From Pseudomonadota bacterium (GTDB lineage: Bacteria > UBA10199 > 2-02-FULL-44-16 > JBDRGF01): DNA of 64,000 nt. Both the position numbers and the translations under genes were made by a program. The stretch lies in assembly GCA_043818055.1 (NCBI GenBank), contig JBDRGF010000159.1, forward strand, positions 17,623-81,622, written 5' to 3'. Positions 34,217 to 55,828 of this stretch are shown in pieces. The notes under the pieces are model-generated. The model was given only the letters and a program-made list of their open reading frames with translations, searched no databases and was not told the DNA's origin. How positions within the stretch are numbered: the first letter of the stretch is position 1; each line of letters opens with the position of its first letter.

Positions 34217-34585
34217 CTATTTTTGGATATTTCCGTCTCTGCTGTTAAGCGTTGATAATTCACTTTCGAATATAGCTAGCTGTTGAATAAGCCGTCTGAT
34301 CTGACGTCTCTGGGAAGTGATAACAATCGAAAACTGCAAGCACATCAATAATACGACTATCAGCCCCAGAAAAAAAAGCGTATTTGCCGGAGCAACCACT
34401 CCAATCAAATGCGTCAAATAAATAAGCCATTCATATTTTACTACGATCAGTGTTGTTACGACACCTATCGCCAACCATAACCAGCAATAAGCCACATCCA
34501 GACGCCCTTTTTGAATCAATCTTATGATTAATAGCAATAAAGAAAGTGCAACGAACAAAAATACAATTACCTGATGTAAAGACAT
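34217..34585 (-). CDS. DUF2304-like small membrane protein
   Basis: 122 aa, 3-4 TM segments, located directly after a GtrB-like GT2. Confidence 0.5.
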   Translation of the reverse strand: MSLHQVIVFLFVALSLLLLIIRLIQKGRLDVAYCWLWLAIGVVTTLIVVKYEWLIYLTHLIGVVAPANTLFFLGLIVVLLMCLQFSIVITSQRRQIRRLIQQLAIFESELSTLNSRDGNIQK

Positions 34586-41938: not shown

Positions 41939-42755
41939 TTACTTGACATAATATCCACCGGTTTTTTTGCTGCCACGGTATTCGATTTTACCTTGCTTTT
42001 TTAATTTTGCCGCCCATCTTTCGACTGTCTTTGGCGACATGCTTATTTTTTCAGCAATTTCTGAAATTCTTTTACCTGGATTGACTCTAATAAATTCCAG
42101 AAAAACATTTATTCCCTCATTTATTCCCTCATTTATTCCCTCATTTATTCCCTCACTTATTCCCTCACTTATTCCCTCATTTATTCCCTCATTTATTCCC
42201 TCACCTCTTTTTCGTAAGTGAAAAACAATGACAAATGCCCCTGCTGTCTCACTAAACTCTGGTGCAGGGTTACCATTTTCAAGAGAATAGTTATAAATCT
42301 TTTGAAAGCCTCCTCCCCAGCCTTCAATCAAACCTATCTTATGAAAAACATCTACTATCGCCTTGTTCCGGGGTATGGAACGACCTTCAGTCAGTAAATT
42401 TTCTATGTTGATTTCCTTAGGTAACAATCCGGGGCTCCATATTTCCAGCCTGTCATCAAAAATTCTGATCTGTATATTACCTGCGTCTGCATAATCACGG
42501 TGTGCAACTGCATTAATAATAGCCTCTCTTATGGCCGGTAAAGAATAGTCCCGGATCTGTATGCAGCTTTACCTTGTTGATCAAATCCTCAATCGCTCCT
42601 TTTCCAACAACCATGTTTAAAGGTCCACCGCTATCATCCAAACCTACGATCACTTTTCCACCACTCTTGTTTGCAAAGGCACCAAGGGTGACTATTACAT
42701 CTCTCCACTCCGCAAGAGAGGATTTGAGTTCCAATGTTTCGGATTCTTTATACAT
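41939..42755 (-). pseudogene. AlbA_2 (Schlafen-like DNA-binding) + wHTH regulator, disrupted; contains (NEGI)n coding repeat
   Basis: Two adjacent ORFs, 42513..42755 (AlbA_2 N-domain, ETLELKSSLAEW...FANKSGGKVIVG) and 41939..42427 (wHTH C-terminus), are separated by a frame break. 12-nt tandem repeat at about 42100-42215. Confidence 0.5.
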
Positions 42756-43479
42756 GGCTATACACCCTCATGATCTCTTGTGCATACTCAACTGCCTGTT
42801 CAGCTTCTTTTCTGGTGATTTCATGTTCGTCATCCATCCAATTTTCAGACTTCTGAAATAACTTATAAAGATATTTAAATTTTGAGGCTATATCTTTACC
42901 ATAATATTTCTCGGTCAGCGGGAGAAGCACATCTATCTTGCTTGAATATCCCTCGTTCTTCATGGCAAGTGAAGCTTGTAAGGCATGTTTTGATGCAACA
43001 AAGCAATAATCGATCACACCATTTGTAAAGCCATCCTTCAGCAATTCCTGAGCCAACTTAACTTTCCGGGATTCAAAATCTCTAGAGTCTTTAAAAAAGC
43101 CTGCATATTTAGATGAAGGAGACTCAAAACTTAACGACATATCAATATCTCCAAAGATAAGCTTTCCTTCACGCTTAGCAGCTGTATAAACAGGCAACTT
43201 TTCCTTTACGAAATCCTTCTCGCTTGCAACTAAAACAGAAAAAGCCTCTTCCTTTACAAGTTCATCTCTGATGCGATTTGCCTTTTTATTCACATTATCA
43301 ACAACCATAAGCAGATCGACATCCGAATCTTCCCTGGCACATAATTTTGCCCATGACCCATAGAGAATGGCCGCTTTAATACTTTTACTTTCAGTTAGCT
43401 TTTGCCTGATTGTTTCAATATGCGTGTCTATTGGCTGAATCATATTAATTAATGGGTTGGGGTATTTTTCTATGAGCAT
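42748..43479 (-). CDS. Fused minimal nucleotidyltransferase (MNT) - HEPN domain protein
   Basis: N-terminal ILYGSWAKLCAREDSDVDLLMVV NTase motif and a C-terminal HEPN-like helical domain. Confidence 0.65.
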   Translation of the reverse strand: MLIEKYPNPLINMIQPIDTHIETIRQKLTESKSIKAAILYGSWAKLCAREDSDVDLLMVVDNVNKKANRIRDELVKEEAFSVLVASEKDFVKEKLPVYTAAKREGKLIFGDIDMSLSFESPSSKYAGFFKDSRDFESRKVKLAQELLKDGFTNGVIDYCFVASKHALQASLAMKNEGYSSKIDVLLPLTEKYYGKDIASKFKYLYKLFQKSENWMDDEHEITRKEAEQAVEYAQEIMRVYSHV

Positions 43480-43503: not shown

Positions 43504-43572
43504 GAAACTAGAAGCCAGAAGCAAGAAGCTAGAAATCAGAGGCCAGAAAATAGAAGTTAGAAACTAGAGGTC
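43504..43572. repeat. Heptanucleotide tandem array block A, about 9 units (AAGYYAG/AGAAGYY)
   Basis: gaaactag aagccag aagcaag aagctag aaatcag aggccag aaaatag aagttag aaactag, period 7. Confidence 0.8.
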
Positions 43573-43771
43573 ATAAATCCTTGATTCCTGCAATTTTTAG
43601 CAGGGCTTTTTGCAAACCGACTTTCAAAGGCCTATTGCCATGTATCGGCAAACTTATTCGTTCTCTCTATCCATCCTTCATAAATATATGATGGCTGCCG
43701 TGTATCCTCTTTAACATCCAGCCGTTATTTTCCAACAATTCTACCATTTCTTTACCTGATAGGGCTTTCAT
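43571..43771 (-). pseudogene. hicA: hicA toxin gene interrupted by an in-frame TAG
   Basis: MKALSGKEMVELLENNGWMLKRIHGSHHIFMKDG*RERISLPIHGNRPLKVGLQKALLKIAGIKDL. Amber codon at 43667..43669. ATGA overlap with the hicB stop. Confidence 0.6.
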
Positions 43772-43971
43772 ACAGCAATTTCCAGCACTTCTGCTTTATC
43801 ATGATTCTCTCCCTCATCAACATCGACAGACAAACAACCTTCCACTGCCTCGTATATATTACTTAGCAACTCTTCCCAAGTGTCGCCTTGCGTGATACAG
43901 CCCGGAACAGCCGGCACTTCCGCCCAATATCCACCCTCCTCCGCTTTGTGAACGACTACCTTTATCTTCAT
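43768..43971 (-). CDS. hicB: HicB-family antitoxin (UPF0150-like)
   Basis: MKIKVVVHKAEEGGYWAEVPAVPGCITQGDTWEELLSNIYEAVEGCL, the canonical HicB N-domain. Confidence 0.7.
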   Translation of the reverse strand: MKIKVVVHKAEEGGYWAEVPAVPGCITQGDTWEELLSNIYEAVEGCLSVDVDEGENHDKAEVLEIAV

Positions 43972-44009
43972 TATCTCACCCTCCCCCTGTTTATCATTTT
44001 TATTTTGTG

Positions 44010-44135
44010 GTTTTCATCAAAATTTTGAATACACCTTCATGATCTCTTGTGCATATTTGACCGATTGTTCAACTTCGTTTCTTTATATTTCATCTTCCGC
44101 ATCCAGCCAATTCTCAGACTTCTGATATAACTCAT
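44010..44135 (-). pseudogene. Degraded duplicate of the 3' end of the MNT-HEPN gene
   Basis: About 75% nucleotide identity to 42757..42870. Encodes ...YAQEIMKVYSKF* compared with ...YAQEIMRVYSHV*. Confidence 0.35.
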
Positions 44136-44142
44136 ATAGATT

Positions 44143-44205
44143 CAGAGGCTTGAAGTCAGAAGCTAGAAGTCAGAAGTCAGAAGCTAGAGGTCAGAGGGGG
44201 GAAGT
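44143..44205. repeat. Heptanucleotide tandem array block B (AGAAGYY)
   Basis: agaggct tgaagtc agaagct agaagtc agaagtc agaagct agaggtc agagggg. Confidence 0.8.
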
Positions 44206-44630
44206 TGCTATCGTTCCCTTTTTGTAATTGACTTTGACTTCAAATCGTCTGAAGAAGTCCAATCCTATCAGCACCTTTATTCCCCAAGATTGGTCGAAGT
44301 GCGAGACATAGAATTGCATCAAACTTATGCCATCTGCCATCCCTGGTTGTGACAAAAACCGGAAGAAATATGTAGCGCGCGCTCGTATCAAAAGTGGTGA
44401 TGTTCGGCATGAGCTCTCCATCCGCCGGGGAATTTGCTTTCGCCGGTGTACTTAAAAGTGCAATCCTTATCAGGTGCCGGAGGACTAAAAACATCCTGAT
44501 CGTTCTTTGAGTGTCGTTCAACAATACCGGAGATGAGCCGGCCGGATTCATCTTCATCACAATCAACAATCATAAGCCACTCATCCGGAAAGGCCTTCTT
44601 CATCTCTTCCCAACTCATTTTCTGTCCCAT
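44191..44630 (-). pseudogene. Frameshifted small gene; the C-terminal part resembles a retropepsin-like (clan AA) aspartic protease
   Basis: Three overlapping ORFs in three frames. One ends ...WGIKVLIGLDFFRRFEVKVNYKKGTI, which is like the C-terminal motif of bacterial retropepsin-like proteases. Confidence 0.3.
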
Positions 44631-44667: not shown

Positions 44668-44782
44668 AAAGCAAGAAGTCAGAGGCAAGAAGTCAGAAGT
44701 TAGAAGTTAGAGGTCAGAAACAAGAAGTCAGAAGTCAGAAGTCAGAAGCAAGAAGCTAGGAGTCAGGGGCCGGAAGTCAACC
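44668..44782. repeat. Heptanucleotide tandem array block C, about 16 units (AGYYAGA)
   Basis: agcaaga agtcaga ggcaaga agtcaga agttaga agttaga ggtcaga aacaaga agtcaga agtcaga agtcaga agcaaga agctagg agtcagg. Confidence 0.8.
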
Positions 44783-44833: not shown

Positions 44834-45151
44834 TTAGTTTTCATAACATCCTTGGTAAGTTGCCTCATCGATATATTTGCACTTGCTTGCGAAATCAAGC
44901 CATACCTTAACGTCTTCGCATGAACCGATAGAATCCAACAGATGCCTTTTAAATACATTTTCAAATCGCCTTTTGGCCCAACATTCTGCAATATTGGCTG
45001 GAATTGATCTCGACGATCTTCTCATTTGATCTATCAAACTATAGCGTTCTTCCTTTGGAAATTTACCGGTCAATCTGAATATACCCATCGCAGATTCGAA
45101 AGATTTCGTAAAAACGACCAAATCTTTACATGTTTTTATCTTCTCTTGCAT
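44834..45151 (-). CDS. Four-helix-bundle protein (23S rRNA intervening-sequence protein family)
   Basis: MQEKIKTCKDLVVFTKSFESAMGIFRLTGKFPKEERYSLIDQMRRSSRSIPANIAEC, the typical family signature. Confidence 0.8.
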   Translation of the reverse strand: MQEKIKTCKDLVVFTKSFESAMGIFRLTGKFPKEERYSLIDQMRRSSRSIPANIAECWAKRRFENVFKRHLLDSIGSCEDVKVWLDFASKCKYIDEATYQGCYEN

Positions 45152-45200
45152 CTGGCTTCTTGCTTCTGACTTCTTGCTTCTTGCCTCTGGCTTCTGCGAC
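45152..45200. repeat. Heptanucleotide tandem array block D (inverted orientation) plus adjacent duplicated 5'-end fragment of the MNT-HEPN gene (to about 45250)
   Basis: gcttcttgcttctgacttcttgcttcttgcctctggcttctg is the reverse complement of AGAAGYY units. 45195-45250 is about 85% identical to 43390-43450. Confidence 0.7.
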
Positions 45201-45284: not shown

Positions 45285-46626
45285 TCAGTCCTTTTTTATC
45301 ACTTTCCAGTGACCACCCTTATCGGGGCCAACACGTTCTATAAATCCTTTTAATTTTAACTTCTTCAGGTTTTCCTCAATTTTCCTCTGTGAAATTCCAA
45401 CAAACGTTGCCAGTTCATTTGCAGAAACATGAGGTTTTTCCCTAATTGTTTTGAGAATTTTAGCCTGGTTTCCCGTTACCTTTTCTCCGACCTTTTCTCC
45501 GACCTTTTCTCCGACCTTTTTAGACCTATTATAAACAGTGACCAAAAACCCCCCACCCTGTACATCAAACTTTGGAGAAGGAAGTTTTCTATCGGCAAAT
45601 GAATCAAATACGCGTTTTATTCCGGAACCATATTTTTCCATTATCTTCAGCTCTTTAAACATTGTTGCAATCTGCTTGTTTCTTATCTCCGATTTATAAT
45701 TCCCTTTCACCAGCTGTTCAACAGTAAGCGGTCCCATCAATTTTCCTGGATTGTAAAATTCCATTCGATCACTAAGACGAACTTGAGTAGTCGCGATGAA
45801 CGACCATGTTTATTACCAGCTCTCTAAGTGCATCCAAAGGATAATCCCAAACCTCATCTCTTTGTGGCTTTCCAGTTATAACATATGCCTTATTGATGTG
45901 CTTGGTTATAAAATGCATCACTTCATCAACTTCTGAAAGCACATCCGTTCTAACCGTTGTACCATCTTTGATAAGTGTCTCCGTCTGAAATCTGCCCAGT
46001 TCAATCGTGCTTAATATCGACCACTCTTTCATAAAAAGTAGAAAACACGCCTTCGATATTTTTTTATCACGCAACAACTCATACTTTTTTAGAAACGTAA
46101 TAGGGTCATCCGTAATTGGATATTCTCTGTTTCTATTTGCTCTTTCAATGAACAGCACAACCTTATCCAGAGAAATATCATTTATTGTATGATTGCTGTC
46201 CTCATAATAATCCCAGCTAGAATTAAATGTTTTGAGATGCATATTGACGACTTCATTTATATTCAGAAGATGATTAGAATTTTTGACCCGTTTGTAATAT
46301 CTGCCTCTGAACGCCACCGGTTTTATCGGATATTCAATCGTATTTATAACAGCTATCAATTTTCCACCGCGTTTTTTAACATCGACGTCAGGAATGATTG
46401 ATGGGTTGGTTTTGTTCTTGATTTCATTTATCCAATTCTGAACAGTTTCTTTGCCTATTTTAACACCTTCCACTTTGCCTTTATCATTCACGCCGATAAC
46501 AACACTCCCGCCTTTCGCATTAGCAAAAGCCACAAGCGTCTCTATTACCTCATTTCCAAAATTGAGTTTAAATTCCTGTTTGTCTGATTCTTTGTATTTC
46601 ATTCTACACTGTCCACGGTAGCCCAA
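45285..46626 (-). pseudogene. AlbA_2 + HATPase_c_4-like + wHTH 'divergent AAA / Schlafen-like' regulator, split by a frameshift; contains (KVGE)n 12-nt coding repeat
   Basis: ORFs 45772..46626 (AlbA_2, FANAKGGSVVIGV) and 45285..45764 (wHTH C-terminus) lie in different frames. ccgaccttttct x3-4 at about 45480-45530. Confidence 0.55.
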
Positions 46627-46733: not shown

Positions 46734-47678
46734 TTATACATGGTTCAAGAAAGTTGCGACATCTGGGGAAATCGTTACTCCATTATCCTGAAGCAGTTTG
46801 ACGCTACCCCAACCTCCTACGTCGCTCCAGTCGAATGCGGCTTTTACGACGGCTACTTGCTGGGATTTTTCTAGCAGGGCGTAATCGACTGATATCGATG
46901 GTGACTGTTCAAAGCATCTTTTGAGAAAATCTCCGCTATCCGCATCTATGTTGATAGATTCATAAACTTCTGTGGCATGAGTTTTGAGTTCACTTAAAAA
47001 TTTACTCGCTCTCCAGACGAAAATGCCGGCGTTCCAGAGATATCCCTCATCTATATATGTCTTTGCCAATTCTTCGTTTGGTTTTTCTGTAAAATTTTTG
47101 ACTGGCGACCAGTCTCCTTCATGCGCTGGAGAAATATAGCCATAGTCCACTGATGGCCAGGTTGGATTGATGCCTAATGTTACCAGATAATCTTTTTGTG
47201 CGATTTCTATCGCTTGTTTAATAACTTCATGAAAAAGATTCTCCTGCGGGATATAGTGATCGGACGGCACGCAACAGATGATCGATTCCCCGTCCTGCAT
47301 ATGAATAATTTTTGTAGCATAAGATAATGCGGGAGCAGTATTTTTTTTGCATGGTTCTGCTATGATATTTTTCTCAGGCAACTCGGGAATCTGTTCTTTC
47401 ACAAGATCGACATATTTTTCATTTGTGGAGATATAAATTTTCTCGCATGCAAACAATGGCAACATCCTATCAAACGTCTGACGAATGAAGGTTTTCTCAC
47501 CGATGAAGTTTAGAAATTGTTTTGGCTTTTCAGGCGTTGAAAGTGGATAAAACCTTGTCCCCTCGCCACCTGCCATGATAACTGCGTATAGATTTTTTGA
47601 GTGATTGTGATTCAAACGAATACTCCTGATTTCTCTACATTTTCCATATTGTGTACCAAAAATTTTTTGTTCTTTCAT
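46734..47678 (-). CDS. manC: Mannose-1-phosphate guanylyltransferase (no PMI domain)
   Basis: LYAVIMAGGEGTRFYPLSTPEKPKQFL motif. 314 aa. Confidence 0.75.
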   Translation of the reverse strand: MKEQKIFGTQYGKCREIRSIRLNHNHSKNLYAVIMAGGEGTRFYPLSTPEKPKQFLNFIGEKTFIRQTFDRMLPLFACEKIYISTNEKYVDLVKEQIPELPEKNIIAEPCKKNTAPALSYATKIIHMQDGESIICCVPSDHYIPQENLFHEVIKQAIEIAQKDYLVTLGINPTWPSVDYGYISPAHEGDWSPVKNFTEKPNEELAKTYIDEGYLWNAGIFVWRASKFLSELKTHATEVYESINIDADSGDFLKRCFEQSPSISVDYALLEKSQQVAVVKAAFDWSDVGGWGSVKLLQDNGVTISPDVATFLNHV

Positions 47679-47889
47679 CTATTTCCCGACTTCTTCTGAC
47701 AACTATTTTAATCGAACGAACACCTGTATTCTCTAATAGCCACCTCACAGCTTTTACATCTCCAAAATTCAGGATTCTCTCTATGATAAAAAACTTATAT
47801 TTTTCGAACTGCAAATCCTTAAACTCGCAGTCCCAGAAATATTTCGCAAACGATTTTGGGAGTTTTATATTTTTTTTCGATTTAGTCAT
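47635..47889 (-). CDS. Hypothetical small protein (84 aa)
   Basis: ORF only. Overlaps the manC start by 44 nt. No recognised domain. Confidence 0.3.
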   Translation of the reverse strand: MTKSKKNIKLPKSFAKYFWDCEFKDLQFEKYKFFIIERILNFGDVKAVRWLLENTGVRSIKIVVRRSREIDERTKNFWYTIWKM

Positions 47890-47984
47890 GTGATGACGCG
47901 TTTCTGATGTTATTAACGCTGAAGAGTGATTAAGAGTTTGATTAATTCAGTCCTTCGACCCCCTCCACCTCCCCCTTATAAGAG

Positions 47985-48062
47985 GCTGTTGCTAAAATGT
48001 AGGGGCACCCCCCCCGTGGTTGCCCTCTTATAAGGGCAGGCACGGGGGCCTGCCCCTACAAA
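47985..48062. repeat. Inverted pair of REP-like GC-rich hairpins (...GCCCCTACA family)
   Basis: tgtaggggcaccccccccgtggttgccc ... gggcaggcacgggggcctgcccctacaaaaac. Confidence 0.7.
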
Positions 48063-48095
48063 AACATCAAAAAACAGACTTCGGCAATTGGCTAT

Positions 48096-48518
48096 TCATT
48101 TTTTATTTACCAGGCTGTTTAAAAGACTCTTAATTTGGCTTATCTGTTTTTTATATACCATTATAGTCTGCCATTTGAGATCGAGATAGCGATGTACGAG
48201 CCTGTTTCGATGAAAGGCAAGTTGCCCAAGTGCCTGGGCTTGTTTTGCGCTCAATCCCGCATTTTTGGCCGCGAGAGATAAAGTTTGCGCATAGCTATCG
48301 GCGGAAATTCCTTTTTCAGCTAAAACAGTCCCGCAAATTTCTATCAGGGCGTTCAATATATTTTCCACTGTTCTGTCGATCAGCTTTTGTTTTTTTGTAT
48401 CAGTCCGATATTCTTCCCACGTAATCCTGGAGTATTCTGCATCAAACTCGCACATCTCCTGCGATATAAACTGAATCGATTCTGCTATTCTCCCCTTTGC
48501 ATAAGTATATTCAGGCAT
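48096..48518 (-). CDS. HepT-like HEPN toxin (DUF86)
   Basis: AFHRNRLVHRYLDL contains the Rx4-6H HEPN motif. 140 aa. Confidence 0.7.
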   Translation of the reverse strand: MPEYTYAKGRIAESIQFISQEMCEFDAEYSRITWEEYRTDTKKQKLIDRTVENILNALIEICGTVLAEKGISADSYAQTLSLAAKNAGLSAKQAQALGQLAFHRNRLVHRYLDLKWQTIMVYKKQISQIKSLLNSLVNKK

Positions 48519-48954
48519 TTTTGATTCTCCTTAAGTTTACCTTAGAAGCAAGAATCTGCCAGGCAGTCCCAAAAAGGCAAAAATCTTCCATCTGAGCTAT
48601 TGATTCAAACAAATAGCGATCACACAGATCCTTATTTTTAACATATACTGGGATTCCTTTTACAGAGGCATTGTAATAAACCATTGGATGATCAAATTCC
48701 TTTTTTAATCTTAGAATGTTCACTTCCAATCCAAGCAATTCACTTAAATCGACACTGATCTTTCCAATAACATCGAGCATTTTCTCCTCATCAGTATGTT
48801 CATCGGAAAACAGAACAGCTATATCGACATCGGATATCCTTCTCTGCTTCCCATGCGCCCAGGAACCATACAAAAAGACCAAATCTAATTTGAGTTTTTT
48901 TGAAACTCTTTTAAAATATTTTTCTAAGATTTTTTTTAACTTTGAGGAGTCCAT
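48511..48954 (-). CDS. MntA-like minimal nucleotidyltransferase antitoxin (start set at the internal Met; the track ORF extends to 49083)
   Basis: LVFLYGSWAHGKQRRISDVDIAVLF NTase GS...D.D motif. Start at 48954 overlaps the epimerase stop (TAATG). Confidence 0.65.
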   Translation of the reverse strand: MDSSKLKKILEKYFKRVSKKLKLDLVFLYGSWAHGKQRRISDVDIAVLFSDEHTDEEKMLDVIGKISVDLSELLGLEVNILRLKKEFDHPMVYYNASVKGIPVYVKNKDLCDRYLFESIAQMEDFCLFGTAWQILASKVNLRRIKNA

Positions 48955-49961
48955 TATATGTTCAACTCCTTCACAAACTCCCAATTCTCTCTGGTCCAAT
49001 CGACTGTTTTTTTGAGGCCATCTATAAAGGAAACTTTTGGTGACCAGTCGAGCATCTTTTTCGATTTTTCTATTGATGCCCATGTCGCTTTCATATCCTC
49101 TTTCGGGAATGGTAGACGATCAATTTTGAGTTTCGCGCCGGTCGCTCCCTCAATAAATGATATCATTTCAACTAGTTCATGAGGAGCATCGCCTCCCAGA
49201 TTGAATATCTCATAGCCAACATTTTTAAGCGCCTTTATCGTGCCATCGGCTATATCATCCACATATGTGAAATCACGCTTCTGAGTTCCATCCCCCATCA
49301 GCTGGATATGATTTCCTTCAAAAGCCCACTTTATAAAACGAAATATACTCATATCGGGTCGCCCAGCAGGTCCATAGACTGTGAAGTACCTTAAAATTGA
49401 GACATCGATATCGTAAAGATAATGATAGCTGTATGCAATTCCCTCCGCTCCACCTTTTGACGCTGCGTATGGTGATATCGGCGTTGTCGTTGGTATCGAT
49501 TCATCGAAGGGCATCTCTTTTCCGGCATAAAGGCTCGATGTTGAGGCCAGGACGAATTTTTTAACATCGTGTTTTTTACAGAGTCCCAACAAATTAGCGG
49601 TGCCAAGCATGTTTGTAGTGATATAAACTTGAGGATTATCGAGGCTTGCCCTTACACCCGCTCTGGCCGCAAGATTTATCACCGCGTCAAATTTATGCTC
49701 CGAGAAAATTCTTTCCAAGGCATCTTTGTCTTCGATATCGAGCTTTATAAATTTAAAATTGTTAAACTTTGACAGGAAATTTTCAAGTCGCCACTCTTTC
49801 AACCGGACATCGTAGTAGTCATTGAGATTATCGATACCCACGACCTCCACACCCAACTCACACAATCTCTTAGCCACATGAGAACCGATAAACCCAGCAA
49901 CCCCTGTGACAAGAATTTTCTTAGTATTTTGAGTCAATTTTTTAATATCGTTTACCATCAT
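48954..49961 (-). CDS. NAD-dependent epimerase, UDP-glucuronate 4-epimerase-like
   Basis: KILVTGVAGFIGSHVAKRL...YAASKGGAEG. Paired with ugd in the locus. Confidence 0.7.
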   Translation of the reverse strand: MMVNDIKKLTQNTKKILVTGVAGFIGSHVAKRLCELGVEVVGIDNLNDYYDVRLKEWRLENFLSKFNNFKFIKLDIEDKDALERIFSEHKFDAVINLAARAGVRASLDNPQVYITTNMLGTANLLGLCKKHDVKKFVLASTSSLYAGKEMPFDESIPTTTPISPYAASKGGAEGIAYSYHYLYDIDVSILRYFTVYGPAGRPDMSIFRFIKWAFEGNHIQLMGDGTQKRDFTYVDDIADGTIKALKNVGYEIFNLGGDAPHELVEMISFIEGATGAKLKIDRLPFPKEDMKATWASIEKSKKMLDWSPKVSFIDGLKKTVDWTRENWEFVKELNI

Positions 49962-55572: not shown

Positions 55573-55695
55573 AATTTCCTCCTTGCCGCATTGAAGTGCT
55601 ATCTGCAGAGAAAGTCAAGAGAATATATCGCCAAAAGCTCTATTTTCAACGTTTTGCGAGCAATAAAAAAATGCCCAATTAACAATACCAAAATT

Positions 55696-55828
55696 CAATA
55701 TCCAATATCCAATATCCAATATCCAATATCCAATATCCAATATCCAATATCCAATATCCAATATCCAATATCCAATATTCAGTTAACAATATCCAATATC
55801 CAATATTCAATACACAATACTCAATTAA
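55696..55828. repeat. (CAATATC)n heptanucleotide microsatellite, about 12 near-perfect plus about 7 degenerate units, in a divergent promoter region
   Basis: caatatccaatatccaatatcc... seen directly in the sequence. Between the minus gene start at 55572 and the plus gene start at 55866. Confidence 0.9.

Follow-up and report, generated by a model that had tools for sequence, protein, structure and literature searches.

A short-HicB hicBA module whose toxin gene carries an in-frame amber codon, very probably through recent nonsense inactivation

The window (the whole 64-kb stretch of DNA analyzed here) carries a hicB-hicA module on its minus strand, with the antitoxin gene placed first. The hicB gene (positions 43768 to 43971) begins with ATG and encodes an intact, short, single-domain antitoxin of 67 amino acids, as judged by Pfam and by the length of its homologues. 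A Shine-Dalgarno sequence, GGAGG, can be read on the same strand at 43980 to 43984, 8 nt 5' of the hicB ATG. The TGA stop codon of hicB overlaps the ATG start codon of hicA in the sequence ATGA (43768 to 43771, minus strand), an arrangement that points to translational coupling of the two genes. The complete hicA frame (43571 to 43771, minus strand) consists of 34 sense codons, a TAG at codon 35 (43667 to 43669), 31 further sense codons, and a TGA (43571 to 43573). Its translation is MKALSGKEMVELLENNGWMLKRIHGSHHIFMKDG-TAG-RERISLPIHGNRPLKVGLQKALLKIAGIKDL-TGA, and the peptide that spans codon 35 reads DG-X-RERISLPIHGNR, with X marking the position of the TAG. Under the standard code, codons 1 to 34 (43670 to 43771) are the sole part that is translated, while codons 36 to 66 together with the TGA (43571 to 43666) are conserved and untranslated. 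The coordinates given in a first-pass annotation of this locus, its intact hicB, and the ATGA overlap were all correct, with the module lying on the minus strand. In the NCBI records, the 34-amino-acid hicA open reading frame (ORF) is listed not as a pseudogene but as a "type II toxin-antitoxin system HicA family toxin" (MFH1654838.1), and the hicB product is listed as a HicB family antitoxin (MFH1654839.1). The gene arrangement is shared by relatives of the module: an NTGA overlap with an upstream ORF was present in all 79 hicA relatives whose match begins at residue 1, and this upstream ORF was most often 67 to 68 amino acids long. A promoter scan returned no more matches than were found in shuffled sequence.

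When the stop codon was masked, the HicA sequence matched the Pfam HicA_toxin profile (PF07927) over its full length (positions 1 to 58 of 58) with 61.2 bits against a cutoff of 27 and an E value of 1e-16. The N-terminal 34 amino acids alone match only profile positions 1 to 28, and positions 29 to 58 are matched by the sequence 3' of the TAG, in which all eight invariant HicA residues (P42, H44, N46, L49, K50, G52, L53, and A61) are retained. Alignment to HicA families, a check that the first-pass annotation had proposed, thus gave a full-domain match across the stop, and that annotation's report of an in-frame TAG with conservation continuing beyond it is borne out. The motif residues G25, S26, and H27 are present and line up with those of the solved structures 4C26 and 6G26, and a cognate hicB lies directly upstream with the ATGA overlap. 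What the gene lacks is an uninterrupted ORF for the α1-β1-β2-β3-α2 fold. In the model of P0001, an intact homologue with 75% identity (pLDDT of 91.4), α1 spans residues 6 to 15, β1 spans 19 to 24, β2 spans 27 to 31, β3 spans 38 to 42, and α2 spans 51 to 60, which places codon 35 in the loop between β2 and β3. The 34-residue product therefore keeps α1, β1, β2, and the GSHH motif and is without β3, α2, and the eight invariant residues, for which reason it should not, on the evidence of this model, fold into an active HicA RNase, and its toxicity is presumably lost. Since the sequence hallmarks of the family are all there and the uninterrupted reading frame is not, hicA is a HicA pseudogene and not a working member of the family.

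The HicB protein matched HicB_lk_antitox (PF15919) with 40.8 bits and UPF0150 (PF21748) with 29.7 bits, both above the respective cutoffs. A comparison with homologues gave 7,987 significant matches among 8,000 scored candidates; the best 120 homologues listed are nearly all 67 amino acids long, and those that were aligned cover 100% of the query. Among the matches listed, the top identity was 81% for HicB and 75% for HicA. The protein matches the N-terminal domain of the solved HicB structures 6G1C/6G1N, aligning solely with residues 1 to 56 of the 92- and 142-residue HicB chains, and it also matches the 67-residue protein TTHA1756 (2YZT). Pfam identified no C-terminal DNA-binding domain in this HicB, which ends at residue 67, so that the C-terminal RHH/HTH domain, which would serve autoregulation in a canonical two-domain HicB, is not a feature of this protein. 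Because of its alignment with only the N-terminal domain of the longer chains and with TTHA1756, the module is, to judge from these comparisons, a member of a large and widespread short-HicB subfamily.

To trace the origin of the TAG codon, we compared the module with its relatives. A search of 5.8 billion proteins yielded 14 HicA relatives with 57 to 75% identity, all of them uninterrupted; the modules of the two closest, P0001 and P0002, are laid out alike, with a 68-amino-acid HicB, a 65-amino-acid HicA, and a 4-nt overlap. The closest intact modules (L004, L002, and L003) have this same layout. In the DNA alignment, L004, the closest relative, has CAG and L002 and L003 have CAT where hicA of the window has TAG, and a single C-to-T transition on the coding strand (G to A at plus-strand position 43669) therefore suffices to explain the TAG. 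Across 83 relatives, the residue aligned to codon 35 was variously S, R, H, Q, E, K, T, and others, and it was a stop codon in none. The scan of genomes with hicA required the conserved C-terminal motif and kept the best 80 matches, which skews it toward intact copies; the zero count at codon 35 is accordingly uninformative as to how often hicA is dead. The proportion of nonsynonymous differences (pN) relative to P0001 and P0002 was 0.14 after the stop, 0.19 to 0.20 before the stop, and 0.14 to 0.15 in hicB, i.e., hicA shows no extra nonsynonymous change 3' of the stop. With the nearest relative being just 75% identical and synonymous sites being saturated, this is a selection test of low power that does not separate a recent mutation from a codon that is read through, and the lack of detectable decay after the stop fits a recent mutation and would be equally expected under read-through.

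The module is part of an island, 5 kb long (41.9 to 46.6 kb), that is made up of small accessory cassettes and lies between dxs and sugar-nucleotide genes, and several of its neighbors are broken. One gene encoding SLFN_AlbA_2, HATPase_c_4, and winged-helix (wHTH) domains (45285 to 46626, minus strand) is split into two ORFs by a frame change inside HATPase_c_4, and a paralogue of it (41939 to 42755, minus strand) has lost its middle by an internal deletion. Both copies have 12-nt in-frame tandem repeats before the HTH (8 copies of "(E/S)GIN" at 42106 to 42203 and 3.6 copies of "GEKV" at 45478 to 45520). A remnant of the 3' end of an NTase-HEPN paralogue, comprising its last ~40 codons (44030 to 44140, minus strand), has a heptamer array on one side and the hicB ribosome-binding site on the other; it shares 82% DNA identity with 42748 to 42870 and carries an in-frame TAA, its translation being ...LYELYQKSENWLDAEDEI*RNEVEQSVKYAQEIMKVYSKF, compared with ...LYKLFQKSENWMDDEHEITRKEAEQAVEYAQEIMRVYSHV for the NTase-HEPN gene itself (42748 to 43479). 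Heptamer arrays of 5 to 13 imperfect units, AGAAGYN on the plus strand, are found between every small cassette of the island and thus divide the NTase-HEPN gene, hicBA, an ORF pair, and a 23S-IVS four-helix-bundle gene from one another. Those with AGAAGYN-like units at 43504 to 43577, overlapping the last hicA codons, and at 44142 to 44195 form the 3' and 5' borders of the hicBA cassette, respectively, and further arrays are located at 44674 to 44766 and, inverted, at 45144 to 45196. Since the NTase-HEPN remnant abuts one of them, these arrays may be hot spots of recombination or deletion. Cyanobacteria and large sulfur bacteria have heptanucleotide repeats that these arrays presumably resemble.

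Some other features of the surroundings are of note. The ORF pair (44191 to 44630, minus strand), which has heptamer arrays on both sides, consists of an 80-amino-acid ORF (44388 to 44630) overlapping a 76-amino-acid ORF (44191 to 44421); neither has a Pfam match, and the cassette may represent either a further small module of two genes or a gene that has been broken. Seemingly intact small modules follow at 47635 to 49083 (minus strand), namely, a DUF6922 protein (47635 to 47889) and an MNT-like nucleotidyltransferase (48511 to 49083, minus strand) that overlaps a HepT-like RNase (48096 to 48518). A repeat with a different heptamer unit from that of the island, CAATATC, is present in 18.7 copies with an 87% match at 55683 to 55812. 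The G+C content is 32 to 41% over positions 1 to 40000, a long minus-strand polysaccharide/nucleotide-sugar cluster, versus 45 to 49% beyond 50 kb; this cluster may have been acquired horizontally or may merely be of different composition.

To estimate how often hicA is dead beside an intact hicB, metagenome contigs were probed with the intact HicB sequence and the downstream gene was assessed, HicB being chosen as the probe because a hicA-based scan favors intact hicA. This gave 80 loci (L085 to L164) with 64 to 79% identity, of which three could not be assessed for hicA. An intact hicA followed hicB at 51 of the 77 assessable loci. At six others, hicA had a single in-frame stop with similarity continuing beyond it, at codon 55 (L107), 21 (L112), 30 (L121), 24 (L135), 19 (L145), and 11 (L159); four of these stops are TAA and two are TAG. 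The gene was frameshifted at three loci (L096, L110, and L154), truncated at three (L109, L122, and L163), and reduced to its first ~6 to 16 codons at six (L093, L124, L148 and L158, which have the same sequence, L149, and L161). Three loci were ambiguous (L120, L134, and L146), and five had a different gene or nothing 3' of hicB (L091, L094, L143, L144, and L147). By this rough count, which is not a controlled survey, hicA is visibly dead beside an intact hicB at about 18 of the 77 assessable loci (23%). Because the stops are scattered in both position and type, they bear the signature of random inactivation and not of a recoding site, and by this count the antitoxin seems to persist longer than the toxin in the short-HicB subfamily. 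At two of the loci with a different gene (L094:1001-1240 and L147:1001-1240), the intact hicB overlaps, again by ATGA, an ORF that is not HicA-like (MNVDAIPDDIANKSKATRFGFGFE... and MNSAIAPYEPTPESKSQRFEFGYEKE..., respectively), which could serve short HicB as another kind of partner.

Taken together, the data make it very probable that a recent nonsense mutation, most likely CAG (Gln) to TAG at codon 35, killed the hicA toxin gene and left HicB effectively an orphan antitoxin. The locus would have started as a type II HicB-HicA cassette with the gene for the 67-residue antitoxin first and the toxin gene coupled to it via ATGA; one C-to-T change would then have ended translation of hicA after 34 residues. 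HicB would still be produced, although effectively without a partner, and is presumably still expressed and of some use to the cell. The mutation appears to be recent relative to any detectable decay, which would explain why hicA 3' of the stop still looks conserved. This reading is further supported by the decaying surroundings, i.e., the two broken SLFN_AlbA_2/HATPase_c_4 genes and the NTase-HEPN remnant. The first-pass annotation had offered recent nonsense inactivation with an orphan antitoxin and programmed read-through or suppression as alternatives; the former gains from a CAG that is one step away, a stop that is unique among 83 relatives, the decayed neighbors, and the base rate of ~23%, and for the latter we found no support. 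Nonsense decay of a toxin-antitoxin (TA) toxin is an ordinary event of an already-known kind and not a case of unusual decoding.

Read-through of the TAG at a low set rate, by a suppressor tRNA, pyrrolysine, or the codon context, would keep the toxin dosage below that of the antitoxin. The fully conserved sequence 3' of the stop would agree with this, as would the position of codon 35 in a variable loop with a broad tolerance for different residues, so that any inserted amino acid would give an active toxin; indeed, since codon 35 appears from the alignment to tolerate many residues, even rare spontaneous read-through would be expected to yield active HicA. Generic read-through of stop codons runs at about 0.01 to 0.1%. 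However, TAG serves as an ordinary terminator in the window: among 47 stop-to-stop ORFs with 200 or more codons, 11 end in it, and 10 of these lie on the main coding strand. A search of the window for open frames separated by just one stop flagged only pairs of adjacent genes that share a frame by chance and short ORFs in noncoding frames within 43.6 to 44.2 kb, and no other recognizable gene split by an in-frame stop was found in the 64 kb; a second in-frame TAG, which the first-pass annotation had suggested looking for, is thus missing from the window. One TAG, at 34217, was considered as a second in-frame amber codon and rejected, as it divides a small membrane protein from a nucleotidyltransferase/phosphatase; besides that of hicA, it is the only TAG at which two long ORFs of the window adjoin. 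The suppressor tRNA(CUA) that it had likewise been suggested to look for is not encoded in the 64-kb window, nor are pyl genes, the sole tRNA there being Lys(CTT). In the vicinity of the stop, no Rfam family matched, and the RNA shows no unusual fold (z = -1.09; of 200 shuffled sequences, 26 reach an equal or better fold). A stop at codon 35 is not a shared property of the relatives (0 of 83), and the stops in other hicA copies fall at six different codons and are mostly TAA, which is a pattern of random decay. A literature search turned up no TA toxin with programmed amber read-through, and to our knowledge none has been described; for hicA genes with premature stop codons, it returned just engineered or unrelated cases. 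We therefore regard programmed read-through as highly improbable. A related and very unlikely idea is that the amber codon is deliberately retained to throttle toxin dosage or, in a weaker form, that the orphan short hicB is selected as immunity against incoming hicA genes. If the throttle existed, rare read-through in the loop would supply traces of active HicA, greatly outnumbered by HicB, which would make HicA a hair-trigger or bet-hedging toxin, and if the immunity version were true, it would explain why around a quarter of the loci keep hicB beside a dead hicA.

A more mundane alternative is that the TAG stems from a faulty consensus or assembly or belongs to a minority allele, with most cells having an intact CAG and a working HicBA. 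The window comes from a metagenome-assembled genome, and the base rests on this one assembly, with no same-strain copy in the metagenome contigs or the protein collection: exact-protein lookups for HicB and for the 34-residue HicA fragment gave no independent copy, a DNA pattern across codon 35 with NNN in place of the TAG had no match in metagenome contigs, and the metagenome scan with HicB gave at best 79% identity. The neighboring NTase-HEPN protein is present in three other short contigs, one of which (L001; 1,190 bp) reaches only as far as the heptamer array, short of hicA, and the gene for it is also carried by SRR6514274; the cassette sits between arrays at which other assemblies break, a setting that favors misjoins or collapsed paralogues. 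Against this, an error would be unlikely to take the form of a base change that by chance yields a stop, ~8% of comparable loci, taken from many independent assemblies, have a genuine in-frame stop in hicA, and the adjacent ~40 kb of back-to-back long ORFs (1 to 41.9 kb) is without broken genes, so that general assembly quality is not to blame. An artifact or minority allele is therefore improbable. Least probable of all is a function for the 34-residue fragment, such as that of a decoy or regulator that binds HicB, which would make the truncation adaptive and not neutral. The fragment has kept the GSHH motif and the translational coupling to hicB, and NCBI annotates it as a protein, but it is without two of the five secondary-structure elements and the eight invariant residues, and other hicA truncations occur at many different positions. 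It is also the single member of its protein cluster, and such a truncated form of HicA is hence not conserved.

On its own, the hicA gene of the window is a correct but routine pseudogene call that matters little. However, automated TA inventories would count this hicBA locus as a live module, since the 34-residue fragment is annotated as a HicA toxin. The figure of ~23% for dead hicA beside intact hicB may be of interest to students of TA turnover and orphan antitoxins.

Among characterized systems, the HicA of the window aligns over residues 4 to 63 with Burkholderia pseudomallei HicA (4C26 and 6G26), with the GSHH motif in register and a similar two-gene module, and it also aligns with the solved structure of Yersinia pestis HicA3 (4P78). 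In contrast to B. pseudomallei HicBA, the module described here has hicB first and a hicA that is interrupted at codon 35. B. pseudomallei HicB is, moreover, a 142-amino-acid protein with a C-terminal DNA-binding domain, whereas the HicB of the window is 67 amino acids long, is without this domain, and aligns with the N-terminal, toxin-binding domain. In length it equals short HicB/UPF0150 proteins such as Thermus thermophilus TTHA1756 (2YZT), and its gene order and 4-nt NTGA overlap are those of the pairs of short HicB and ~65- to 69-amino-acid HicA found in many environmental bacteria. It differs from these modules by the nonsense codon in its toxin gene, the toxin being intact in 51 of the 77 assessable comparable loci. 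Chromosomal TA systems have been described to decay by deletion or nonsense mutations, with ccdO157 in Escherichia coli as a reviewed example of a decaying locus (PMC7167474), and orphan antitoxins are abundant and have been reported in Klebsiella (PMC7192599). Our estimate for dead hicA agrees with this literature on TA decay and orphan antitoxins (PMC7167474 and PMC7192599). The TA family and the host differ from those of the ccdO157 and Klebsiella cases, and the locus is known from one assembly; what it has in common with them is a toxin that was in all likelihood killed by a point mutation, an antitoxin ORF that is intact, and a location in an accessory island with other pseudogenes.
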